DNA of 64,000 bases from Candidatus Pacearchaeota archaeon (lineage in GTDB: Archaea > Nanobdellota > Nanobdellia > Pacearchaeales > GW2011-AR1), in NCBI GenBank assembly GCA_027021195.1, contig JALUUW010000003.1, positions 4,843-68,842 on the forward strand. Reading direction: 5' to 3'. Positions within the stretch are counted from its first letter, which is position 1. Each line of letters opens with the position of its first letter. The translations under genes were made by a program, and so were the position numbers. This document shows positions 1 to 10,177 of this stretch, piece by piece. The notes beneath the pieces were generated by a model, which worked only from the letters and a program-made list of their open reading frames with translations, was not told where the DNA came from and did not search any database.

Positions 1-47
1 CTGAAACTATTGAACCTGGGAAGATAGAAATCGCTATCTTTAATGAT

Positions 48-587
48 TTGAAAGAGTTTACAAAAAAATATGAATTTGAAAATAATAAATCTCTTCCTTT
101 TTTTGTTGTAGGATTTGCTGGAAAGAACGGCAGAATTTTTATCTTGGATAAAAAACTTTTTCCAAAACAAGGACACAGAGAAGAAGAATTTGAAAGAGTC
201 GTTGTTCATGAATTATGCCATGTATTTATCAGGAGAATGCTACACCCCAAACATACTTTCATTTGGATAGAGGAAGGGCTATGTGAATTTTTGTCTTTTG
301 GAGATTATCCTTTAAAAATAAAAAAAATAGTGGATTTTAGAGAGATTGAAACTTCTGAAGGATGGAGAAAGCATAATGCCTATCAACAAGCAAAAGGTTT
401 TTTTAAATATTTATCTAAAAATTATGGGGATAAAAAAATAGTGGAATTTATTAAAAAAATTAAAGTTACTTCTGAGAGAAAGGCATTTAAAGAGGTGTTT
501 GGAAAAGAAATAAATGAAATCCAAGAAAAGTTCTTTAACACCTTGAAAAATGAAAAAACTCTATCATCCGGGAATTCCTTGCAATGA
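48..587 (+). CDS. Putative Zn-dependent peptidase-like protein (HExxH...E motif: VVVHELCHVF...EEG). It may begin upstream of the window.
   Basis: ORF-track translation contains HELCH with a downstream Glu (gluzincin-like pattern). It overlaps the start of the downstream rSAM gene by 38 nt, which is operon-like. Confidence 0.4.
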   Translation: MKEFTKKYEFENNKSLPFFVVGFAGKNGRIFILDKKLFPKQGHREEEFERVVVHELCHVFIRRMLHPKHTFIWIEEGLCEFLSFGDYPLKIKKIVDFREIETSEGWRKHNAYQQAKGFFKYLSKNYGDKKIVEFIKKIKVTSERKAFKEVFGKEINEIQEKFFNTLKNEKTLSSGNSLQ

Positions 588-1716
588 GAATATAGTTCAA
601 AAAGATTTAGAAAAGAGTCTTATTAATTTTAGAAATAAGCGTATAGAGATTGTTGAATGTAATGAAGGGTTTGGAGTTTTTGATAAAGACTGGTTTTGGG
701 CAACAAAAGAAGAGTTAGATTCTCTTAAGAAATGCCCAGATATCTCAATAAGGTATTTTTTAGATAATGAAAAGTTCAATCATGAAGGATGGTTTTTTTA
801 TAACCCAATAGAACTTGGTATAGAATTAACAAGAGAATGTAATCAGCTGTGTATTCATTGTTGGAATGAATCTTCTTCAAGGGATACTAAAATGCCTTTG
901 AAGAAGGCAAAAGAAATTATTCAGGAATTTAGAAAAGGAGGAGGACAGAAAATAAAGATATCTGGTGGAGAACCATTATCATATTCTTCTTTAGATGAAT
1001 TTTTATTTTTTTCAAAAGAAGTTGGGATAAAAAAAGTAGATATGACATCTAATGGAGTGTTAATGAATAGGGAAAAAGCAAAATTTTTATCTACTCATCT
1101 AACAAATATATGTATAAGTATTCATGGTTCTAAATCAGATATACATGACGATATAACTTACAATAAAGGAAGTTTTGTAAAATCTATTAAAGCAATAGAG
1201 CATCTTCAGGAAGAAGGGTTAAACCCCATAATTAATTATACTGTTATGCAGAAAAACAAAAAGGACATTGCAGACATGATTGAATTAGGGAAAATTCTTA
1301 ATGTTAACGGGATAAAATTCAGTTGTTTAAAAAAGATTGGAAGAGCGAGAAATTTAGAGGTAATTTCTAAAGAAGAGGTAAATACATTAAGAAATTTAAT
1401 ATATACTAAATCGAAAGAGCTTGGAATTGAGTTAGAGAAGAGTGAATTGTATCCTGCAGGATATGTTCAAGGCATTAGTCAATCAAAATTTTATGGATGT
1501 AATGGATTAAGAACCCAACTATATATCTCTTCAGAAGGCAACGTTTACCCATGTAGTTTAATAAATGAAAGTATTGGAAACATTTACCAAGATTCTTTAT
1601 TTAATTTATGGAGAAGTAAAAAAGCTCAGGAATTTAGAAGATTGGATAATTGTATTAAAAATGATTGCAAAATAATTAGGGATTGTGGGAGAAAGTGTAG
1701 GGCAAGTTTGAAGTAA
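550..1716 (+). CDS. Radical SAM enzyme with C-terminal SPASM-like Cys-rich domain and ~90-aa N-terminal extension
   Basis: CNQLCIHC (CX3CX2C) radical-SAM cluster motif. A GGEP-type SAM-binding segment is present (ISGGEPL). The C-terminus has multiple Cys (CNG...CSL...CIKNDCKIIRDCGRKC), typical of SPASM auxiliary-cluster domains. Confidence 0.8.
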   Translation: MKKLYHPGIPCNENIVQKDLEKSLINFRNKRIEIVECNEGFGVFDKDWFWATKEELDSLKKCPDISIRYFLDNEKFNHEGWFFYNPIELGIELTRECNQLCIHCWNESSSRDTKMPLKKAKEIIQEFRKGGGQKIKISGGEPLSYSSLDEFLFFSKEVGIKKVDMTSNGVLMNREKAKFLSTHLTNICISIHGSKSDIHDDITYNKGSFVKSIKAIEHLQEEGLNPIINYTVMQKNKKDIADMIELGKILNVNGIKFSCLKKIGRARNLEVISKEEVNTLRNLIYTKSKELGIELEKSELYPAGYVQGISQSKFYGCNGLRTQLYISSEGNVYPCSLINESIGNIYQDSLFNLWRSKKAQEFRRLDNCIKNDCKIIRDCGRKCRASLK

Positions 1717-1793
1717 CGAGGGAGAGTTAAATATAAAATATATTTTGACCATGGAAGAAAAATAGGGTATGGGAAGCTAAAAAAAGAGCAGAT

Positions 1794-2372
1794 ATGGAAG
1801 GTTATGAGAATATAAAATTTGTTAAAGCTGATATCAATTCCTTACCCTTTGACTCAGAAACGTTTGACGTTGTCATAGTAGGAAATGTCTTCTCTTTGAT
1901 AGAAAATAAAAAAATTGCATTAAAGGAATGCATGCGTGTTTCTAAAAAAAATGGATTTATTATTGTAATCCCTATGTATTACATAAAAGAACCTTCGAAG
2001 GAACTTATAAAGAGAGTTTCCAAAGCCCTTAAAGTCGACATTGCTCCTATGTATCGATCAGATTGGATAAATTTCTTCTCAATATCTGGATTAGAAATAT
2101 ATTGGTCAAAAGATTTCAAATTTGACCACATAGACAATAAAAAAATAATTTCCTTTTGTGAGGAGATTTTTAATAAAGAACATTTACGAAACTTGACTAA
2201 ATCGGCATATGAGAAACTATTTGAAGTTTATCAGAAATTTATGTTTCTATTTCGCGATAATTTATCTCATATGGGATATATCATACTTATTTTATCTAAA
2301 AGAAAGTTGTGGGAAGATCCAGAACTCTTTACATCCAGAGAAAATATCTCCCTTGGAAACTTTAGTCAATAG
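1794..2372 (+). pseudogene. Class I SAM-dependent methyltransferase fragment lacking the N-terminal SAM-binding motif I (likely truncated or remnant)
   Basis: The translation starts inside the MTase fold (NIKFVKADINSLPFDSETFDVVIVGNVF = post-motif II/III region). Upstream in frame there is a stop at 1746–1748, no ATG and no GxGxG motif. Only 78 nt separate it from the upstream gene. Confidence 0.4.
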
Positions 2373-2390
2373 AATAAAATATGGTAATTC

Positions 2391-3416
2391 TTATTTGATT
2401 CCTTTTTCTAAGAACTCAAAATTGTTTGTTTCTGAGTCAATTACAACTTTTGTACCAATAGGGATAGTTAGCTGAGGATCGGTATGACCTATATCCACTC
2501 CAAACAAAATGGGAAAATTATATTCTTTTGTTCTCTCCAGTAACTTCTTTTTTAGCATTTCTATATCTTCTTCATTATATCTAAAAGGTCTGCCAAAAAT
2601 TAGCCCTCTGATTTGTTTAAATACTCCTAAAATGTTTAACTGCTCCAGATACCAGTCAACATAAGGAAGGGGTTCCCCTTCATCAAATGTCTGACCTTCT
2701 GGCAATTCTAAAAATAGAATCTTATCTGTATGATCTGGCCAGTATTTTGTACCTGGCAAATGGACTATTGATGTGAGACATCCTCCTATAATTTTACCTT
2801 CTGCTTTTCCTCCTCGCAACCATTCAAAACCTTTATTTTCTTTCAATTTTCTTGGCCTTGTAAGATCCAACTTTTTACTCCAATCTAAGAATTCATCAGT
2901 CCAGCTTTCAGAAGGAGATACTTTTCCTATGGGTTCATCTGATGCTACTGCCTTATTAAAATAATCTAAAGTATATTTAAGAGGATGAGGGTATTCTCCA
3001 AATTGAGTTATAATACATGGTCCATAAAAAGTTATAAGATTGGATTGCGTATGGAGTGCATAGTGCAAGATAGAGATATCTGAATAACCACAGAATATCT
3101 TTGGATTTTGTTTTATTTTCTCAAAATCTAAATAATTTAGAGTATGGGTTGCTACTGTTCCTCCAATTAAAGATATAATTGCTTTTATATCTTTGTCAAG
3201 AAAAGCGTCCATTATGTCTTTAGCCCTTTCTTCTGCAGGAGCAGATTCCCATCCGTTAACTTTTCTTGCTGTAGGAAACTCTTTAATTTTATAACCCTCA
3301 GATTTTAGAAATTTAACCGCATTGTCAAGTCTATGGGGAAAGTTCAATCCAGACGATGGAGCGATTATTGCTATTGTATCTCCTTTTCCAAGTCGTGGAG
3401 GCTTAATTAGTTCCAT
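2391..3416 (-). CDS. LD-carboxypeptidase (peptidase S66, MccF-like)
   Basis: GDTIAIIAPSS N-terminal motif, GYSDIS Ser-nucleophile motif and a C-terminal His/Glu region. Length and architecture fit the S66 family. Confidence 0.7.
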   Translation of the reverse strand: MELIKPPRLGKGDTIAIIAPSSGLNFPHRLDNAVKFLKSEGYKIKEFPTARKVNGWESAPAEERAKDIMDAFLDKDIKAIISLIGGTVATHTLNYLDFEKIKQNPKIFCGYSDISILHYALHTQSNLITFYGPCIITQFGEYPHPLKYTLDYFNKAVASDEPIGKVSPSESWTDEFLDWSKKLDLTRPRKLKENKGFEWLRGGKAEGKIIGGCLTSIVHLPGTKYWPDHTDKILFLELPEGQTFDEGEPLPYVDWYLEQLNILGVFKQIRGLIFGRPFRYNEEDIEMLKKKLLERTKEYNFPILFGVDIGHTDPQLTIPIGTKVVIDSETNNFEFLEKGIK

Positions 3417-3623
3417 TAATTTTTAACAGAGGTAAAACTTTAAATATTTATTGGATTCCCTCTAACAACCCCTTCATTCAAAATAAAAGAAAAAGCCATT
3501 ACAGATATGACTATGATGCTAATTTGAATTAAGGACAAGCAAACCTTCGGCCCTTTTTTTGGGATGGGTTAATGAAAACAATGGCATTTATTCTTGTTTA
3601 TGGGTATTTACTAAGAATAATGG

Positions 3624-3839
3624 CTAAGGAAAACAGCCTAATTTTTCATGTGCTTTTATTAAAAAATCCCTGAAATCTTTTTTGCTTTCCCATACAGGAT
3701 TTAACTTGTTCCTGATTAAATCAAAATCTATCTTCTTTAATCTTCTAATCTCTGCTAATTCACTTATCATTCTTTCGTACTTTTCTTTTGATATTTTTGC
3801 CATTTCCATAATAGCTAAATGGGGCTGATATTTATACAA
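3624..3839 (-). CDS. Hypothetical small protein (71 aa), last gene of the minus-strand rSAM operon
   Basis: ORF-track ORF, tightly spaced (23 nt) after the upstream gene on the same strand. No recognisable motif. Confidence 0.3.
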   Translation of the reverse strand: MYKYQPHLAIMEMAKISKEKYERMISELAEIRRLKKIDFDLIRNKLNPVWESKKDFRDFLIKAHEKLGCFP

Positions 3840-3862
3840 TTTTCTAAATAAAACAGGGAATC

Positions 3863-4531
3863 TTATATCTTAATTCTTTTAACATATTCTATACATTCAT
3901 TAATTAGAGGAATTATATCTGGATTATGCTTCCACGTTTCCATTACTCTCTTTCTTAATTCTTTATGTTCAGCATAGCCTTTATCTTCAACAAACCATAG
4001 ATCTCTACACTCTAAATTTAAGATTGCAGTTAAAGACTCATTAACATACTCTATTTCTCTAAACCCTAGCTGATTTCTAATTAAAGGCAAATGTGTTTTT
4101 TCCATCTGTAAATGCATTAATTCATGTCCACATGTTCTTAAATTTTGCAACAGAGGTCTTCGAATTGAGACCATGAAAGAATCCTCCTCCACATTATAAG
4201 GACATCTTCCAGCAGTTGTAATATATGCATTAAATTCATTTGAATATATTTTGTGTTTGGTAATTTTTTCTAACCTTTCAAAAAACCTGTTATTTATTTT
4301 TCCCCAAGAGTTCTGCAATGTTTCTAAAAAGATGTCTAAATGGCCTGAAGAATATAATGGTTGAATATACTGTTCAATCTCTTCCCTACATTCTTCAAAT
4401 TTTCTATTTTTCCACCTCTGTAGGACTGACCCTCTTTCTAATTCATTCTCCCATGGATGCTCGTAGTTGCTAGTTTCCCATATATTCCAAAGGTCTTTTT
4501 CCTTATCAAACTTAAAAATTACTTTTGACAT
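3863..4531 (-). CDS. HExxH-motif protein, putative metallopeptidase (222 aa)
   Basis: RTCGHELMHLQ...REIEYVNE gives an HExxH plus downstream Glu. It has the same motif class as ORF 48..587. Confidence 0.4.
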   Translation of the reverse strand: MSKVIFKFDKEKDLWNIWETSNYEHPWENELERGSVLQRWKNRKFEECREEIEQYIQPLYSSGHLDIFLETLQNSWGKINNRFFERLEKITKHKIYSNEFNAYITTAGRCPYNVEEDSFMVSIRRPLLQNLRTCGHELMHLQMEKTHLPLIRNQLGFREIEYVNESLTAILNLECRDLWFVEDKGYAEHKELRKRVMETWKHNPDIIPLINECIEYVKRIKI

Positions 4532-4547
4532 ATTCTTTTTTTGAAGG

Positions 4548-5072
4548 TTAAGCTTTTTGTTTATTTTTTAATAGTAATAAAATAACATTATGTTTATGGG
4601 GGGGCAAATTATCATGCTCTTCAATGGGGGTCTCATACATTCCTTCCTTCATTATTTCCCAATCAGAATATAGGTTTTTTAATTGTTTTAATGAAGGATA
4701 AAACCTATTTTGTGCATTTCTTGCCATAGGGTCTTTATCTGAAAAACAGATGATAAAAGTATGTCCTTGCTCAGAGGTATGTGTTTGTATCTTTTTTAAA
4801 ATATTTTGTGCAGTTACCTTATCTAAAAAATGCAAAACTAACGAAGCAATTATTAAGTCATATTTCTCTTTGAATTCAAAATTTGTTATATCTTCATTAA
4901 AGAATTTAAAATTTTTCTGGGAGATTTCCATAGGTCTTTTATCTACTCCAAGAACTTTTACGCCTTGTTTGGCAAATCTGAGAGATTTATGCCCTTTCCC
5001 ACAACCCAGATCCAAAACATTTTGAGGCTGTAGTTCTTTAAGATATTCTTTGACTTTATCCCTTATTATCAT
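4548..5072 (-). CDS. Class I SAM-dependent methyltransferase
   Basis: Motif I VLDLGCGKG, motif II-like KVLGVD and motif III-like DLIIASLVLHF. Confidence 0.7.
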   Translation of the reverse strand: MIIRDKVKEYLKELQPQNVLDLGCGKGHKSLRFAKQGVKVLGVDKRPMEISQKNFKFFNEDITNFEFKEKYDLIIASLVLHFLDKVTAQNILKKIQTHTSEQGHTFIICFSDKDPMARNAQNRFYPSLKQLKNLYSDWEIMKEGMYETPIEEHDNLPPHKHNVILLLLKNKQKA

Positions 5073-5108
5073 TTATTAATTCTTTAAGTTTATTTTATTT
5101 AATTCTTT

Positions 5109-6170
5109 CTAATCTTGTGAGCTTCCCTGCACATATTCTTTAAAACACATAGGGTCTTTGGCCATATAATCTCCTGTTACTGCATAAGCAATTGCCCTAC
5201 ATCCTCTGCAGTGCACCACTTTATCACAAAGAGTATTCTCCCTCATTTTATTCAAATCTCTTAAATTTTGCATTACCTTGTTCTCTAAAATTAAATTACC
5301 TATTCCGTCACTTATGCGACCTATTTTAATAGGAAGTCTTCTACAAGGATAAACAGTTCCGTCCGATAATATTGAAAGCATTCTAAATCCTGCAGAACAC
5401 CCCCAAAGATATTTATTTTGCTCCTTTGCTGTTTTTATTACTTCGTTTTCTTTTTCCAATATTTGCCAAAGAACATCAGATTGAAGGACATTAATCTTAT
5501 CTCTATATTTTTCATTTAGTCTTTCAGTTTCTTTAACCATCTCGTAGATTTCTTTAGCATTAATAAATTCAGGATCTTTAATTCCTAAGTTTGAATCTGG
5601 ATTATAAGTTTTAAAACCCACTTTTTTAGCTCCTGCTAAAATTGCATTTTGGATAACATCCTCAAACTCTTTTTTATTAGACTGCATAAGAGTCATGGCT
5701 ACTGTAACATTTAAGCCTTCTTTTGAAGCATTTCTTATCCCTTCAATTGCCATATCATATGCAAAATCTTTTCTCCTAATTTTATTATGTGTGCGCTTAG
5801 ATCCATCAAGAGAAACTTGTATTGCTTCAACTTTTTGCTCCAAAAGTTCTCTAGCTTTTTTAGGAGTAATTAATGTGCCATTAGTTAACAAATTTGTTAT
5901 AACTTTTTTCTTACAAGCATATTCTAAAATTTCAAGATGATCTTCCCTCATTAAAGGATCTCCTCCCGAAATTGCGATTCTGGGTATCATCTCCCACCTT
6001 TTTGCTGTCTCTGCTAAATCATCTATCATTGATTTTACTTCATTTAAACTCATTAAATTATCATCTTGGATGTGGTCTACATTCCCTTCGTTGTTATGAT
6101 AACAATGGGAGCATTTAAGATTACAATCATTTGTGGAATCCCCTTGAATATATAAGTGTCTTTTAGCCAT
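5109..6170 (-). CDS. Radical SAM enzyme with C-terminal SPASM-like domain
   Basis: CNLKCSHC (CX3CX2C) near the N-terminus, ISGGDPL SAM-binding segment, and a C-terminal Cys-rich region (CSAG...CRRL...CDKVVHCRGC). Confidence 0.8.
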   Translation of the reverse strand: MAKRHLYIQGDSTNDCNLKCSHCYHNNEGNVDHIQDDNLMSLNEVKSMIDDLAETAKRWEMIPRIAISGGDPLMREDHLEILEYACKKKVITNLLTNGTLITPKKARELLEQKVEAIQVSLDGSKRTHNKIRRKDFAYDMAIEGIRNASKEGLNVTVAMTLMQSNKKEFEDVIQNAILAGAKKVGFKTYNPDSNLGIKDPEFINAKEIYEMVKETERLNEKYRDKINVLQSDVLWQILEKENEVIKTAKEQNKYLWGCSAGFRMLSILSDGTVYPCRRLPIKIGRISDGIGNLILENKVMQNLRDLNKMRENTLCDKVVHCRGCRAIAYAVTGDYMAKDPMCFKEYVQGSSQD

Positions 6171-6212
6171 TACAAATTAAGAGCAGTTTTTCTAAATCTA
6201 TTTGGAATTTTT

Positions 6213-6338
6213 TTATTCTAAAGAATAGACATCATCTGCGTAACATGCATCTGGACCACAAGCATCGCAAGGGTCACAGTGATAACGATCTTTCTCTTGA
6301 GACGCTTTATTAGTTATATAAGAACTAATATCTAACAT
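6213..6338 (-). CDS. Candidate RiPP precursor peptide, 41 aa, MLDISSYITNKASQEKDRYHCDPCDACGPDACYADDVYSLE (not in the supplied ORF track)
   Basis: I translated the minus strand by hand: ATG at 6338, TAA at 6213–6215. It carries 4 Cys in a 12-residue acidic core. It sits 42 nt upstream of, and on the same strand as, the rSAM/SPASM gene 5109..6170. Confidence 0.5.
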   Translation of the reverse strand: MLDISSYITNKASQEKDRYHCDPCDACGPDACYADDVYSLE

Positions 6339-6390
6339 ACCCTTAAGAAAAGCTTGTTCCTCAGCAGTTCTCTCCAGTTTATTTGTTTTT

Positions 6391-6400
6391 GCTATAAAAA
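6391..6400 (-). promoter_or_regulatory. TATA-like box (TTTTTATAGC on the minus strand) ~55 nt upstream of the small Cys-rich ORF
   Basis: AT-rich TTTATA element preceded by a purine-rich BRE-like stretch. Position relative to the ATG is compatible with a short 5' UTR. Confidence 0.25.
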
Positions 6401-6583
6401 GCCAACAACCTTAATATATTTAAATTTTATTGTAATGGATTTATTTTGTAGTGCCTAAGTAACTTAAAAAGTTATTTATTTGCAGATTTTTCAGAAGAAA
6501 CAACCTCAAACTCAGTTGAGCCTATATAATTTCCATCTACATTAAACACTGTTTTGCAAATCCCTAATTGTAATGATTTGTCA

Positions 6584-6615
6584 AAACAAAATCCTCTTCA
6601 TTTACATTTCTTGAA
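6584..6615. repeat. 32-nt exact copy of an internal coding segment of the giant gene 11026..14769 (second copy at 11601..11632)
   Basis: AAACAAAATCCTCTTCATTTACATTTCTTGAA is identical at both loci. At 11601–11632 it encodes NVNEEDFVYT on the minus strand. Confidence 0.8.
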
Positions 6616-6639
6616 AACAAATTGTTTCATTTAATCCAT

Positions 6640-6740
6640 ATACCCCGCAGCTCTGCTGCGGTTGGGAGCTTCACTTCAGAACGAGATGGGGCAGAAGTCA
6701 TGACTCCAGAATTAGCGGATGTGTCTTAACAGGAAGTCTT
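6640..6740. ncRNA. GC-rich structured patch, candidate small RNA (unclassified)
   Basis: Local GC is well above the window average. It contains the perfect hairpin GCAGC-TCT-GCTGC flanked by CCCC...GGGG. No ORF with a start codon spans it. Confidence 0.25.
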
Positions 6741-6801
6741 TCTCCTCTGGAAGAATACGTTCTTCTCTCAAAAACCCTTCCCTATCAGCTATTCTAAGGG
6801 T

Positions 6802-7386
6802 TCACTCAGATGTTCTGCTGATTTCATTCAGATATTCTGCTAATTGCCTCATATCATCAGGCTTCCCCTCTAATTCAGAATAATATTTATTGTCCATTTC
6901 AAAGTAAAACCTATTCACGAAATCAATAGTCTCTTTGTATTTGCTTATGCCTTTTTTCTCAACTAATTTATTAAAGCAGTCAATATATCTCATTAGGGCT
7001 TCAGTCAACTCCCTTGTTTCCTCGCTCTCCTTAAGCAGGGCTTTATCCATATTAGAATATGCTTTATCCAAAAATTCAATTACTTCTTTATAATTCTCAA
7101 CCCCTTTTTTTTCCACCAATTTGTAAAAAGCACACGCATATTCTGTTAAAGCCATAGTCAGGTCCCTGATTTCCGGGTCTTTGATTCTATGTATCTCTTT
7201 CTGGAATCTATCCATATCATCAAGTTCTTTTTCTATTGTCTCTTGGAAAGTTTGGTTTTTTATTTTTGACCGAAAAATGATTCCGTGTTCCACTAGACCT
7301 TTATGGAATCCTCTTAATCCTTTCAATATCTTTTCATTTAATTTAATTTTTTCTGCTTCTATCATTTTAATCTTACATAGTTCCAC
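6802..7386 (-). CDS. Hypothetical helical protein with an internal tandem repeat (~45-aa unit: LT.AL..Y...F.KLVEKKG...YKE.I.F...)
   Basis: Two clearly similar segments in the translation (LTMALTEYACAFYKLVEKKGVENYKEVIEF / LTEALMRYIDCFNKLVEKKGISKYKETIDF). Confidence 0.4.
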   Translation of the reverse strand: MELCKIKMIEAEKIKLNEKILKGLRGFHKGLVEHGIIFRSKIKNQTFQETIEKELDDMDRFQKEIHRIKDPEIRDLTMALTEYACAFYKLVEKKGVENYKEVIEFLDKAYSNMDKALLKESEETRELTEALMRYIDCFNKLVEKKGISKYKETIDFVNRFYFEMDNKYYSELEGKPDDMRQLAEYLNEISRTSE

Positions 7387-7438
7387 CTACCCTTATGCAT
7401 TAATAAAAAAGACAAAAAAAGAAATTATCTTTCAGGTC

Positions 7439-7564
7439 TTATTTCTTTTCAGATCCTTCAGTCATTTCTAAAACCTTCTCATTTGGCATAGAGGTTTCTA
7501 CAAGACCCAAATGGAAATTCTCAAGACCTTCCAACATTTCCCTGTTAAATCCACATAGGGGCAT
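7439..7564 (-). CDS. Small ORF (41 aa, MPLCGFNREMLEGLENFHLGLVETSMPNEKVLEMTEGSEKK) paralogous to residues ~18–40 of the adjacent protein 6802..7386
   Basis: Manual minus-strand translation. LEGLENFHLGLVE resembles LKGLRGFHKGLVE of the neighbouring gene. Confidence 0.25.
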   Translation of the reverse strand: MPLCGFNREMLEGLENFHLGLVETSMPNEKVLEMTEGSEKK

Positions 7565-7624
7565 TTTCTTTTCCTCCTAATTTAGTTAACTATAATATAT
7601 AATTACTTTATATAAACTATTCTA

Positions 7625-8668
7625 TTGGATAATTTTACAAAAAAGAAATATTTATATATTGGTACTTATTTTATGTATAAAATGATGAAATTGGATGTAT
7701 ATGACCGGAGAATTTTGGAGGTTTTAATAGAAAACTCCGAAGAGCAAATAAGCGCTATTGCCAAAAAGATAAGGCTCAGAAGAGAAAACGTTAACTATCG
7801 GATAAACCGCATGGTTAAATCAGGTCTGATAAAAGAATTTAACACAATCTTAAATGAAAGAGCGTTGGAGCTTTCCCACTATGTTGTTTTTGTAGAACTG
7901 ATTAAACTGGAAGAAAAAACAGAGCTGGAAATTATAGATTATCTCAGGAATAGCTCCTTTGTGAGCTGGATAGGAACTTCAGCAGGGAGATGGAGCCTGG
8001 TTTTTGATATAATAGCCTATGATAAAGGCTCAAATTTTGAAAAGATATTAACGGAGTTTCTCAAAAGATTTGGCGGAGATCATATTGAAAACTACGAGGT
8101 TTTGAGGCTGAATAAAAGAGATTATTTTGCATCAAAGTTAATTGGCAAAGAAAAATATTTCCATGAAAATGCTGAAAGCAAGGCCTCTCTTAAAAGATTG
8201 GACAATATAGATCTCAGAATACTTTCATTGCTAAACAAAAATTCAAGAAAAACTTTGGTAGAAATATCTTCTAAAATAGGCTTGACTCCAAATGGAGTTA
8301 ATAATAGGATTAAGGGCCTAATCAATAATGGCATTATAACAGGATATACGATTTCCATTAATTGGAAGAAATTAGGCTATGAGTGGTTCACAATACAAAT
8401 TAAGCTGCACAAGTATGGTGAAGAAGTATATGCCAAAATGGAATCTTTTTTCAGGAATCACAAGAAAGTGGTGTTTTACTACAGATATCTTGGAGGAAGC
8501 TGGGACTATGATATAGGGGTTTTGGTTCAGAATTCAGACGAATTAAGGGATTTTATCAATGAATTCAGGAGAAATCTTTCGGATGTTTCCAAAATCTCTG
8601 ATGTTTTTTTGACTCTTGAAGAAATAACAGGATATAAAATGCCTGAAGGGGTTTTTAATCCTTCTTAA
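7625..8668 (+). CDS. Lrp/AsnC-family transcriptional regulator with two tandem HTH_AsnC-like units
   Basis: LDVYDRRILEVLIENSEEQISAIAKKI and LDNIDLRILSLLNKNSRKTLVEISSKI are both Lrp-type HTH segments, each followed by a regulatory-domain-like region. Confidence 0.6.
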   Translation: MDNFTKKKYLYIGTYFMYKMMKLDVYDRRILEVLIENSEEQISAIAKKIRLRRENVNYRINRMVKSGLIKEFNTILNERALELSHYVVFVELIKLEEKTELEIIDYLRNSSFVSWIGTSAGRWSLVFDIIAYDKGSNFEKILTEFLKRFGGDHIENYEVLRLNKRDYFASKLIGKEKYFHENAESKASLKRLDNIDLRILSLLNKNSRKTLVEISSKIGLTPNGVNNRIKGLINNGIITGYTISINWKKLGYEWFTIQIKLHKYGEEVYAKMESFFRNHKKVVFYYRYLGGSWDYDIGVLVQNSDELRDFINEFRRNLSDVSKISDVFLTLEEITGYKMPEGVFNPS

Positions 8669-8689: not shown

Positions 8690-10177
8690 TCAGCTGTTAT
8701 ACCCCTCAACTCCGATAAAATTTGTTGAGCCTCCGCAGTCTCCAAGAGAGATACATGCATTATTCATCTCTTTCTTCCATGACTCTGAAAGGCACTCACA
8801 GTTTTTCACGCACTTTTCCTTTCCAGTCAGCCCTTTTTCAAATACTACTGTGCATTGAGTGTCTGCTATAGAGCATAAAGATTCAGCCTCAGTGTCCTCT
8901 TCCCAAAAATTAAATCCAGGGGCATTTTCAGGAACGCATCCTATTGAAGACCATTTGCAGTCTCTCCTGTCTTTATTCTCGCAGTCTTTTTTGGTTGTTT
9001 GAGAGGAGCAGTCCTGCCATTTATTTACTCTGCATGCAGCTGTCTTAAATCCGTCAATGTCGTCCTGGACACAGACTTCCTGCCTGAAATCCGCGCACGG
9101 CTCTATGCTTACCTCTCCGTTATAACACACCAGCCTGAAATGCCTGCTTCCAGGAAGGCTTTTGTCTGTCCCGCTTGCATCTGCGCACCATGTTTCCCCA
9201 TGCTTATATTTTTTTCCAAGATAATTGCAGCTTAAGTCTCTGCAGATGTTGTCTCCGTAAGTTGGCTTTACTCTGTCCTTTCCTCTTTCATAGGATTTGC
9301 AGGTGCTTCCCAAAAAATAATCGCAGTTGCCGCACCCGGATGATCCGGCATTTCCGTCTGCTGAACTAAATCCGCAGCTCTTTTCCTTTCCATAAGCCTT
9401 TGTCCAGTAGTTTTTGTCTTTTATTTTTGAGGCATCATAAATATTCGCAGGATTTCCGCAGCTGTCAACAAAGAAGACTTCATCTCTTCCTTCAATGCAC
9501 GTTGTTCTTTCTGAGGGTCCGCAGTTTGTTGCAAGCTCTTCTGCAGAGCATAAAAGCCCCTCGTAAAACTCTACATTGGAATCAGGAGAGCTCGCTTCCA
9601 TTTTTCGGCACTCTCTTTTTGTTATGAACTTGCATGTTCTTGCCATCTCTTCAGGATCCTCAAACACACATGCTCCTTTGACATCTGAAGTAGCAGAAGC
9701 AATGCATTCTATCTCGCTTCCTATGTTTGTCCTGAAGTCAGTTTCGAGCCCGTAAAGGGACGAAAGCCTTTTGCATCTCGTCTGCGTTACAAAAGCAGCC
9801 TGGTCTCCTATCAGGCAGCACCCAAGAGAGCATTGGGGGATTTCATCCATCTTCCCTTCGTTCCATACCCCTCCTGAATCCTCGCATACTTTTTGAGGAG
9901 TGTTTTCCATGCAGGTTCCCTCCTGGCTGTCTATGCAGGTTCCAAGCTTGCAATAAGAGGTCGCCTCGCAGGAAGTCGGGACTTTTCTGTATGAGCTGTC
10001 GCATTTATCCTGAGGAGCGTTCTGGCACCATGCATTGTTTACTGTTTTTTCGCAGCAGTATGAAACCTCTCCGACAGCTGAGACAATTGCAATATATGCT
10101 ATGACTGCCAAAAAAATCAGCGCAACTCCTGCTGCTAACCCTTTTTCAAAAACATTATTTGTCTTGTTTCTTCCCAT
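8690..10177 (-). CDS. Secreted Cys-rich protein (495 aa), N-terminal signal anchor. It is a paralog of the N-terminal half of the 1247-aa protein.
   Basis: N-terminal hydrophobic helix and ~50 Cys. It shares colinear blocks with 11026..14769 (e.g. CSLGCCLIGDQAAFVTQTRCKRLSS vs CQKGCCVLGDNAQFVTEKRCEKLSS, and C-terminal CISLGDCG). Confidence 0.6.
   Translation of the reverse strand: MGRNKTNNVFEKGLAAGVALIFLAVIAYIAIVSAVGEVSYCCEKTVNNAWCQNAPQDKCDSSYRKVPTSCEATSYCKLGTCIDSQEGTCMENTPQKVCEDSGGVWNEGKMDEIPQCSLGCCLIGDQAAFVTQTRCKRLSSLYGLETDFRTNIGSEIECIASATSDVKGACVFEDPEEMARTCKFITKRECRKMEASSPDSNVEFYEGLLCSAEELATNCGPSERTTCIEGRDEVFFVDSCGNPANIYDASKIKDKNYWTKAYGKEKSCGFSSADGNAGSSGCGNCDYFLGSTCKSYERGKDRVKPTYGDNICRDLSCNYLGKKYKHGETWCADASGTDKSLPGSRHFRLVCYNGEVSIEPCADFRQEVCVQDDIDGFKTAACRVNKWQDCSSQTTKKDCENKDRRDCKWSSIGCVPENAPGFNFWEEDTEAESLCSIADTQCTVVFEKGLTGKEKCVKNCECLSESWKKEMNNACISLGDCGGSTNFIGVEGYNS

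Follow-up and report, generated by a model that had tools for sequence, protein, structure and literature searches.

Within the window, the 64,000-nucleotide stretch of DNA from a Candidatus Pacearchaeota archaeon that we analysed, five tightly spaced minus-strand ORFs encode a Cys-rich small peptide, a radical SAM protein, a methyltransferase, an HExxH protein and a 71-aa protein. All five ORFs of the original prediction were found where it had placed them, and the intergenic gaps, which it had put at 16-42 nt, measured 42, 36, 16 and 23 nt. The features of the locus are as follows.

6213..6395, minus strand: precursor peptide gene, from ATA (6395-6393) to the stop codon (6215-6213), about 60 aa: IAKTNKLERTAEEQAFLKGMLDISSYITNKASQEKDRYHCDPCDACGPDACYADDVYSLE
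6213-6338, minus strand: 41-aa ORF, the ATG-limited part of the precursor, containing ...YHCDPCDACGPDACY...
5109..6170, minus strand: predicted radical SAM/SPASM peptide maturase, 353 aa, with CNLKCSHC at residues 16-23 and Pfam matches
4548..5072, minus strand: TehB-like class I SAM-dependent methyltransferase, 174 aa, with VLDLGCGKG and a match to Pfam TehB
3863..4531, minus strand: stand-alone gluzincin-fold HExxH metalloprotein, 222 aa, with HELMH; putative leader peptidase
3624..3839, minus strand: small ORF, 71 aa, probably outside the cassette, with no family match
6417..6424, minus strand: TTTAAATA, a possible archaeal TATA box read from the sequence, situated some 25 nt before the ATA codon

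The TATA box is a tentative assignment, as similar matches are common in DNA of 31% GC. Scans for tRNAs and Rfam families returned a single tRNA-Lys, distant from the cassette region. The left edge of the window carries a second, convergent cassette, and up to three radical SAM/SPASM enzymes are found inside 10 kb of the contig.

The small Cys-rich ORF of 41 aa proposed originally is present and conserved, but it is a truncated call: the precursor is about 60 aa long, its leader lying in frame further upstream. Only one canonical start codon is available, the ATG at 6338-6336, from which the 41-aa ORF is read; upstream of it and in the same frame comes the leader motif TAEEQAFLKGM, with the (L/R)TxxExxFL motif at about 6377-6345, and the Cys-rich core YHCDPCDACGPDACY... 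follows at 6284-6216. The closest relative (L098) has an ATG start exactly where the window genome reads ATA (6395-6393), a reading confirmed in two independent assemblies, and this comparison indicates that the ATA is a changed ancestral ATG start. Even so, the leader reading frame ahead of the ATG has stayed open, and its protein sequence is conserved (ERTAEEQAFLKGM vs ELTVNEQAFLGSM).

Precursor homologues lie directly upstream of the radical SAM gene in related loci and share the leader motif L-T/S-x-x-E-x-x-F/Y/L-L, followed by a short C-terminal core, CxxCxxC(x2-4)C, that is rich in Asp, Asn, Ser and Gly. In an alignment of 18 precursors (A3), the leader Glu and the core CxxCxxC are invariant. 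At least six core classes can be distinguished among the precursors, with strong conservation of the core inside each class; the class-A core contains one 'ACGP'. Codon differences in the core (35 synonymous vs 9 non-synonymous) point to purifying selection.

This arrangement is conserved well beyond the window. Every intact close locus carries a Cys-rich small ORF adjoining the radical SAM gene, the ORF is kept beside that gene in about 30 other loci, and the methyltransferase adjoins it in 35 of the 37 related loci; the synteny check set out with the original prediction came out in its favour. The conserved core consists of the Cys-rich precursor, a radical SAM/SPASM enzyme lacking a RiPP recognition element (RRE) and a TehB-like methyltransferase. 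The predicted five-gene operon accordingly shrinks to these three universal genes, the HExxH gene being linked to class A. The 71-aa ORF drops out of the operon altogether: it has no homologue in the 37 related loci, is called at 59-61 aa by gene callers and is confined to assemblies of this one organism. Three other neighbours were also rejected as cassette members, namely a 194-aa upstream protein (no homologue in most related loci), a double Lrp/AsnC regulator (found in two related loci only) and an S66 peptidase (one related locus only). The cassette contains no transporter or immunity gene, and no dedicated protease family is present at it.

Relatives of the radical SAM enzyme at 41-77% identity were confined to genomes of Pacearchaeota, Woesearchaeota and Nanoarchaeota, with the exception by name of one bin labelled Methanosarcinales (L030). 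The cassette is therefore found only in DPANN archaea, that bin's label apart. Identity then falls sharply to 30-35%, in bacteria (Nitrospirota, Deltaproteobacteria) without such peptides; these relatives were set aside because a peptide scan of them gave only high-GC frame noise. In a tree of the radical SAM enzymes, peptide classes A to D each correspond to a monophyletic group, and enzyme and peptide thus co-diversify.

Both the radical SAM model (PF04055, E = 1.5e-24) and the SPASM model (PF13186, 29.3 bits vs a gathering score of 21.5) matched the enzyme at 5109..6170, as had been predicted. The cluster motif CX3CX2C is formed by C16, C20 and C23, and the C-terminus contains six invariant Cys (C258, C276, C315, C321, C324 and C342), in which CX12GX4C corresponds to C258-X12-G271-X4-C276 and the middle block reads CX5CX2C. 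Canonical SPASM domains carry seven Cys, arranged as CX9-15GX4C ... CX2CX5CX3C ... C; the C-terminus of the window enzyme is thus a SPASM domain with an atypical Cys count (six vs the canonical seven). A PqqD-like RRE, fused or separate, is present in most characterised ranthipeptide and sactipeptide members. In the window enzyme, Pfam gave no PqqD/RRE match at E<=0.1 and the radical SAM core begins at residue 11, and no RRE gene was found in the cassette or in the related loci examined.

The enzyme and the peptides fall below the threshold of every curated family compared (ACGX, SCIFF, PapB, AhbD/NirJ, anSME and PqqE). The best NCBIfam scores of the enzyme were to rSAM_ACGX (171.8 bits, cutoff 400) and NirJ2 (170.2 bits, cutoff 500), with 153 bits to AhbD, and models of other chemistries scored similarly low (ScmE 109, WgkB 106.5, SbtM 105.6 and PapB 94.8 bits, the last vs a cutoff of 340). 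Its nearest PDB sequences were CteB (6e-14) and SkfB (4e-12); anSME appeared only as a PDB match to the N-terminal part (1e-8). Foldseek placed its AF2 model (pLDDT 91) nearest to SkfB, followed by SuiB, PqqE, TigE, anSME and ChlB, at TM scores of about 0.6-0.75. In line with the original prediction, the constant genomic partner of the enzyme is a peptide and not a cofactor pathway. Identity as anSME, PqqE (80.6 bits vs 381) or MftC (85.3 bits vs 265) was rejected on these scores and on the lack of sulfatase, PqqA-D or MftA/B partner genes. A heme-type AhbD/NirJ identity was likewise rejected, because its scores (153-170 bits) lie below cutoffs of 500-650 and all of the roughly 40 loci are free of tetrapyrrole genes. 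The double Lrp/AsnC protein nearby scored 29.5 bits to AhbB (cutoff 125) and higher to regulators.

The 174-aa methyltransferase matched Pfam TehB (PF03848, E = 7e-20, 71.7 bits vs 20.4). As it reached only 86.3 bits to NCBIfam TehB, for which the equivalog cutoffs are 218-303 bits, it is TehB-like rather than TehB. Among solved structures, it is closest to TehB 3m70 and 2xva; enzymes of the TehB type methylate tellurite and selenite.

Among known systems, ranthipeptides (SCIFF with CteB/ScfB, freyrasin with PapB, and QhpD) also pair a short Cys-rich precursor with a radical SAM/SPASM enzyme, CteB being the best PDB sequence match of the window enzyme, and the DPANN cores resemble theirs in interleaving Cys with Asp, Asn, Ser and Thr. 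SCIFF further shares a highly conserved core and a cluster without a transporter. Unlike these systems, the DPANN cassette is archaeal, lacks an RRE and includes an apparently obligatory TehB-like methyltransferase, and its thioether is a prediction. Membership of SCIFF was rejected, since no precursor matched the SCIFF model TIGR03973 even at E<=10 (a control SCIFF sequence scored 89 bits) and the ScfB-related model gave the enzyme 75 bits vs a cutoff of 855. The ACGX system (enzyme TIGR04340, peptide TIGR04341) is similar in that its enzyme aligns end to end with ours (residues 11-345 to profile positions 8-340) and also lacks an N-terminal extension, and in the single 'ACGP' of class A. However, the DPANN cores are built on CxxCxxC and not on ACGX repeats, and ACGX membership was rejected on the sub-cutoff score of the enzyme and the failure of all 12 DPANN precursors scanned to match TIGR04341. 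Literature searches on ACGX returned unrelated uses only; to our knowledge, the system is defined bioinformatically and we know of no published chemistry for it.

Sactipeptide maturases (SkfB, AlbA, StsB) are likewise radical SAM enzymes with SPASM or twitch domains, and SkfB is both the top Foldseek neighbour and the second PDB match. Sactipeptide precursors keep the Cys donors apart from the acceptors, which occupy the other, hairpin-forming half; the DPANN cores, in contrast, are short with Cys throughout, no RRE is present and the scores are far below cutoff. AhbD and NirJ resemble the window enzyme in length and in having no N-terminal extension, but its scores are only about one third of their cutoffs, and its constant partners are a peptide and a methyltransferase.

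The enzyme shows the general features of radical SAM/SPASM RiPP maturases, with a CX3CX2C motif, a SPASM domain and an adjacent conserved precursor made up of leader and core. Given the SPASM match, the conserved ORF and the peptide-maturase relatives, the central proposal of a RiPP-type operon of Cys-rich precursor, radical SAM/SPASM enzyme and methyltransferase holds, and we put the probability that the locus is a peptide-modification cassette at roughly 0.85. We infer the following order of steps. The ribosomally made precursor of about 60 aa, with its conserved leader and Cys-rich C-terminal core, would be recognised through the leader by the RRE-less radical SAM/SPASM enzyme, which would act on the core, most likely by forming intramolecular Cys thioether crosslinks as in CteB, PapB, QhpD or SkfB. 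The TehB-like methyltransferase would then add one or more methyl groups, for which the candidate target is a Cys thiol, by analogy with chalcogen methylation by TehB and TPMT, or alternatively a carboxylate. In class-A cassettes, including that of the window, the downstream gluzincin-fold HExxH protein may remove the leader. Taken as a whole, this scheme seems to us somewhat better than an even bet. Counting against it are the missing RRE in or beside the enzyme, unlike most characterised sactipeptide and ranthipeptide maturases; the near tie of ACGX with the heme models NirJ2 and AhbD, all far below cutoff; the six SPASM Cys; the lack of a transporter, an immunity gene and a dedicated protease family; the frequency of the HExxH family apart from the cassette; and the ATA start of the precursor.

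The Cys sulfur is joined to C-alpha in sactipeptides and to C-beta or C-gamma in ranthipeptides, and by analogy with these a thioether is our leading candidate, at rather less than even odds. The cassette could instead install a thio-oxazole (SbtM-like), formylglycine (anSME-like), an epimerised residue or a C-C crosslink, the methyltransferase acting on the group so formed. Such chemistry is suggested by the C-x-P of class-A cores, which would suit anSME-like formylglycine formation, by the similar sub-threshold scores for many chemistries, by the similar TM scores of anSME, SuiB (Lys-Trp), TigE (cyclopropyl) and PqqE (C-C), and by the fact that Cys alone is invariant in the core, with no acceptor residue conserved across classes. 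It is made unlikely, if still a serious competitor, by the best PDB matches, which are to the thioether-forming CteB and SkfB, by the residues interleaved with Cys, which are the usual ranthipeptide acceptors, and by the restriction of C-x-P to class A.

The 222-aa HExxH protein, in which H136, E137, H140 and E165 are invariant, combines HExxH, a third-ligand Glu on the following helix and a zincin fold, as expected of a gluzincin of clan MA(E). It had no sequence-level match in Pfam, NCBIfam or PDB families, and a family profile search of PDB sequences returned nothing, so that the fold search alone was informative; compared with M1- and thermolysin-type gluzincins and with the ChlH and PflC oxygenases, it corresponds to the catalytic domain alone. 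Its placement in the operon was right for the window but holds only for class A: the gene follows most class-A cassettes and is absent from three class-A loci, and the family is widespread in DPANN, in other genomes without the cassette. We thus treat it as an accessory gene of class-A cassettes with a putative role as leader peptidase. That it is instead a neighbouring housekeeping DPANN peptidase, or an alpha-ketoglutarate/Fe(II) HExxH oxygenase that hydroxylates the Asp-rich cores in the manner of the IPR026337-type beta-hydroxylases ChlH, BpmH or PflC, we consider unlikely to much the same degree as non-thioether chemistry.

It is less likely again that the window copy of the cassette is decaying or silent. 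With the ancestral precursor start now ATA in both assemblies, the leader may go untranslated and this copy may be impaired; the 192-aa methyltransferase of the second cassette lacks a SAM-binding N-terminus, aligning only to positions 44-95 of the Methyltransf_11 profile; and the GC content of positions 1-8000 (29-33%, vs 35-43% in the rest) could mark a degenerating acquired island of 8 kb. Set against this are the intact and conserved radical SAM, methyltransferase and HExxH ORFs, the open and conserved leader frame, the natural occurrence of a short-leader precursor (L011) and the ability of AUA to serve as a weak start codon. Finally, it is very improbable that the peptide is a metal- or Fe-S-binding partner (ferredoxin-like or metallothionein) beside an AhbD/NirJ-type enzyme with a non-peptide substrate and a methyltransferase acting on a small molecule or metalloid, as TehB-type enzymes can; CxxCxxC(x4)C does resemble a ferredoxin cluster motif, the NirJ2 and AhbD models score nearly as high as ACGX and JGI labels some homologues 'AdoMet-dependent heme synthase', but the peptides have the two-part RiPP layout of conserved leader and class-variable C-terminal core, they co-diversify with the enzyme, tetrapyrrole genes are lacking, all heme-family scores are below 35% of their cutoffs, and the bacterial relatives carry no peptide.

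For the peptide-modification cassette, secretion and an antimicrobial or signalling role, as originally suggested, are drawn from analogy only. Since the cassette lacks both transporter and immunity genes and conservation of the core within each class is strong, a SCIFF-like physiological, metal-binding or signalling role is no less likely than an antimicrobial one. A bolder reading, which we regard as rather unlikely, is that the product is a conserved, methylated, Cys-derived, non-antimicrobial peptide of new chemistry (for example with S-methylated or capped thiols) that might work as a factor with metal or redox activity, or signal in the cells' dependence on a host.

DPANN archaea, whose genomes are very small, are thought to be host-dependent, and we know of no characterised natural product from one. 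Literature searches on DPANN with RiPP or radical SAM, ranthipeptides with Woesearchaeota, and TehB with RiPP found no description of this cassette family. The original view that such pathways are essentially undescribed in small-genome archaea needs softening, because an antiSMASH survey already counts radical SAM-type RiPP clusters across DPANN (PMC12144867), but it stands insofar as neither such a product nor such a family has been characterised.

Despite its small genomes, this lineage keeps a conserved trio of peptide, radical SAM enzyme and methyltransferase. The family is a compact target: heterologous expression would involve three or four genes, nature supplies no fewer than six variants of the core, and the leader motif is defined. 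It is suited to testing how an RRE-less SPASM enzyme acts on CxxCxxC cores, which part a methyltransferase of the TehB type plays in a peptide pathway, and whether the peptides contribute to metal handling or to the interaction of symbiont and host. Should the chemistry prove to be an ordinary thioether, the family would be a useful but incremental addition to the ranthipeptides; a non-antimicrobial peptide of new chemistry would represent a new class of RiPP and, for DPANN archaea, the first functional natural product.

All five minus-strand ORFs of the original prediction, a single RiPP operon, were found in place with gaps of 42, 36, 16 and 23 nt, and the motifs quoted for them (CDPCDACGPDAC, CNLKCSHC, VLDLGCGKG and HELMH) were each located in the studied ORFs:

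6213–6395, minus strand, precursor peptide
5109–6170, minus strand, 353-aa radical SAM/SPASM enzyme (rSAM)
4548–5072, minus strand, 174-aa TehB-like methyltransferase (MTase)
3863–4531, minus strand, 222-aa gluzincin-fold HExxH metalloprotein (HELMH protein)
3624–3839, minus strand, 71-aa ORF

As predicted, the 353-aa protein is a radical SAM enzyme with a SPASM domain, matching Radical_SAM (E = 1.5e-24) and also SPASM, where its 29.3 bits exceed the gathering score of 21.5. The 174-aa protein is indeed a class I methyltransferase, for which TehB was the nearest Pfam family (E = 7e-20) and the TehB-type enzymes 3m70 and 2xva the nearest solved structures. The 41-aa, 222-aa and 71-aa products found no family match in Pfam or NCBIfam searches. 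The proposed membership of the 71-aa ORF did not hold, as it had no homolog at any related locus, and we excluded it from the system. What stands of the five-gene operon is the peptide, the rSAM and the MTase, with the HELMH protein as an accessory rather than a core member. The RiPP-cassette reading is therefore supported in its core, while the cassette should be listed with fewer genes and its precursor re-annotated.

The 41-aa call gives only the minimal ORF, since the leader motif ERTAEEQAFLKGM lies in frame 5′ of its ATG within 24 stop-free codons. In the closest relative, locus L098 (rSAM 77% identical), the precursor has 62 aa (MGKVNQLELTVNEQAFLGSM...HCDPCDACGPDACYSDDVYFLN), and its ATG aligns with an ATA at window positions 6395–6393 (minus strand). 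This ATA is read in two independent assemblies of the window organism, and the conserved leader frame behind it stays open. Judging from L098, ATG would be the ancestral precursor start, replaced by ATA in the window organism. The window gene may therefore use AUA as a near-cognate start, encode a leader-shortened 41-aa peptide, or be an impaired copy; a short leader occurs naturally in the precursor of locus L011.

Alignment of 18 precursors from related loci revealed an invariant Glu within the leader motif L-T/S-x-x-E-x-x-F/Y/L-L and an invariant CxxCxxC triad. The cores fall into at least six classes:

Class A, Y-x-CDPCD[AG]CG...C, the class of the window
Class B, GYTCV[ST]GCxxC[VI]SC[DG]GND
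Class C, ...C[DN]SCNSCGSGDCNSCC..DD
Class D, CNTC[KR]QCPGCGCMCNND
Classes E and F, longer cores

Among class-A genes, 35 of the codon differences within the 10-codon core were synonymous and 9 were non-synonymous, the latter mostly at one position. When the rSAM proteins were placed in a neighbour-joining tree, each of the classes A, B, C and D came out monophyletic. Together these results show that the precursor is a translated gene under selection. The monophyly of classes A–D further indicates that enzyme and peptide diversified together, the pattern that would be expected of an enzyme–substrate pair. The public protein collection contains only 34 called precursors, each labelled "hypothetical" and none with a Pfam domain. 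No curated model for Cys-rich RiPP precursors matched these peptides; the library includes target_ACGX, SCIFF and AC3_0185, and a SCIFF sequence, used as a control, scored 89 bits.

The rSAM family comprises 2698 matches at E ≤ 1e-10, more than 120 of them at ≥50% identity, and its named members are from Pacearchaeota, Nanoarchaeota and Woesearchaeota. In a scan of one genome per GTDB species, relatives at 41–70% identity were confined to DPANN MAGs (~30 species) and one bin labelled Methanosarcinales, below which identity fell abruptly to 30–35% (Nitrospirota, Deltaproteobacteria); no peptide comparable to the precursor was found at the loci examined in these two groups. When we checked whether the small Cys-rich ORF is conserved, it was present beside the rSAM at every intact close locus, usually 6–59 nt upstream and sometimes overlapping, and the TehB-like MTase adjoined the rSAM in 35 of 37 archaeal loci. 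The Methanosarcinales bin, probably misbinned DPANN, carries its cassette at 4651–6587 of locus L030, where the precursor, which has a long core (CTDCYSCNDYGCNSPDTGCTDCTSCSSDGGCASC), is encoded downstream rather than upstream of the rSAM and is followed by a distantly related HExxH protein, with no MTase before the contig end.

The HELMH protein belongs to a family of 175 matches, all in DPANN and all annotated as "hypothetical", with invariant residues H136, E137, H140 and E165 and an AlphaFold model of high confidence (pLDDT 95.7). Its gene directly follows the rSAM and MTase genes in 10 class-A loci whose flanks otherwise share nothing. This recurrence points to a functional link, for which removal of the leader is the simplest role, and we lean slightly towards a dedicated leader peptidase. 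Other observations speak against a dedicated role: homologs at 38–46% identity occur without a cassette beside RtcB, cysteine desulfurase/NifU or ribosomal genes, the cassette of locus L009 shares its neighbourhood with such cassette-less homologs, and the gene is missing from three class-A loci. We consider the alternatives, a housekeeping neighbour or an oxygenase, less likely, even jointly. Separately, at L090/L091 (5001–8351) a 46%-identical HELMH homolog immediately follows RtcB/archease, and 1.1 kb away lies a 442-aa rSAM/SPASM that is closest to StsB/GeoRSP, shows a faintly PqqD-like N-terminus and has its own 60-aa ORF upstream.

The rSAM carries its CX3CX2C motif at residues 16–23 with no N-terminal extension, and therefore has no fused RiPP recognition element (RRE); nor was an RRE gene found near the rSAM in the loci inspected. 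Six Cys are invariant in its C-terminal domain, which includes CX12GX4C; canonical SPASM has seven. No curated NCBIfam model reached its cutoff with this enzyme. The best was the model for the rSAM of the hypothetical "ACGX system" (171.8 bits, cutoff 400), followed by NirJ2 (170.2 bits, cutoff 500) and AhbD (153.5 bits, cutoff 500), and many peptide-maturase models scored 75–110 bits. By sequence, the nearest solved structure was CteB (6e-14), a SCIFF/ranthipeptide thioether synthase, and the sactipeptide enzyme SkfB also matched (4e-12); fold neighbours of the rSAM model (pLDDT 91) were SkfB, BlsE, SuiB, PqqE, TigE, anSME and ChlB (TM ~0.6–0.75). A heme-enzyme reading was rejected, as ~40 loci held no tetrapyrrole genes and the invariant partners are the peptide and the methyltransferase.

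In overall architecture the cassette is the same as known Cys-rich peptide plus radical SAM/SPASM systems. The family differs from these in falling below all curated thresholds, lacking an RRE, having a leader motif and a core framework of its own, and being restricted to DPANN, and its obligatory TehB-like methyltransferase also sets it apart. In our literature search no publication connected TehB-type enzymes with RiPPs, a weak negative. An antiSMASH survey counted rSAM-type RiPP clusters across DPANN, with none characterised there (PMC12144867).

A second, convergent RiPP-like cassette lies at the left window edge (48–2372, plus strand). It and the other neighbours of the studied cluster are:

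L096 (a longer contig overlapping the window) 1471–2954, left of the window and preceding the second-cassette set, 435-aa rSAM/SPASM and 59-aa Cys peptide ending ...AEYSCDAVCDNCHCATF
48–587, plus strand, BSP/peptidase-MA-like HExxH protein of 226 aa, incomplete at the window edge
550–1716, plus strand, rSAM/SPASM of the second cassette, 388 aa, with a ~90-aa N-terminal extension
1794–2372, plus strand, Methyltransf_11 protein, 192 aa, matching profile positions 44–95 only and without the N-terminal SAM-binding motif I
2391–3416, minus strand, S66 LD-carboxypeptidase/MccF-type serine peptidase, 207 nt downstream of the studied cluster
7625–8668, plus strand, 347-aa protein with two Lrp/AsnC-type HTH modules, divergent from the cluster
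8690–10177, minus strand, 495-aa protein, very rich in Cys, with a hydrophobic segment at the N-terminus

Window position 1 corresponds to L096 position 3057, and three rSAM/SPASM genes lie within ~10 kb of the contig. The 192-aa methyltransferase, 78 nt from the upstream 388-aa rSAM, may be truncated or inactive. GC content is 29–33% across window positions 1–8000, which hold both cassettes, versus 35–43% across most of the remainder, with the rise to ~41% beginning at the 495-aa protein gene; this low-GC block of ~8 kb could be an acquired island or could reflect the composition of the genes it contains. The S66 family, here represented in an archaeon, includes MccF, the microcin C immunity peptidase; a homolog sits next to the rSAM in L030 (3041–4078), whereas the remaining 35 loci lack the gene. 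In L005/L026, a gene similar to that of the 347-aa protein is found at a distance of 3 kb from the cassette; the 347-aa protein has weak sub-threshold matches to siroheme decarboxylase AhbA/B, which have the same fold. The composition of the 495-aa protein suggests that it is extracellular and disulfide-rich.

Class-B cassettes, with the core GYTCVSGCxxCVSCDGND, were found in L005 (7581–9660), L007 (7584–9222), L017–L024, L026 and L029; one Woesearchaeota MAG (CAZZGW01) holds two separate ones on different contigs (L018 and L024). They encode an APH-fold kinase with weak matches to thiamine kinase and LxmK, often beside a DUF3419 (BtaA-like) protein, to which L005 adds a nucleotidyltransferase-like protein and a GNAT.

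We propose that the leader is bound directly by the RRE-less rSAM/SPASM. This enzyme would then modify the Cys-rich core, and short intramolecular thioether rings are the likeliest outcome, given its nearest characterised relatives and the resemblance of the Cys/Asp/Asn/Ser/Thr-rich cores to PapB, QhpD and CteB substrates. The TehB-like MTase would add methyl groups, for which a thiol is an attractive target by analogy with chalcogen methylation by TehB and TPMT; alternatively, they may go to a carboxylate. Leader trimming would fall to the gluzincin in class A; class-B cassettes have the kinase instead, with or without the DUF3419 protein, so tailoring differs by class. No transporter or immunity gene was found in the cassette, and within each class the cores hardly vary. 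These features suggest that the product may have its effect within the producing cell or on it, as has reportedly been proposed for SCIFF, and not as a diversifying toxin.
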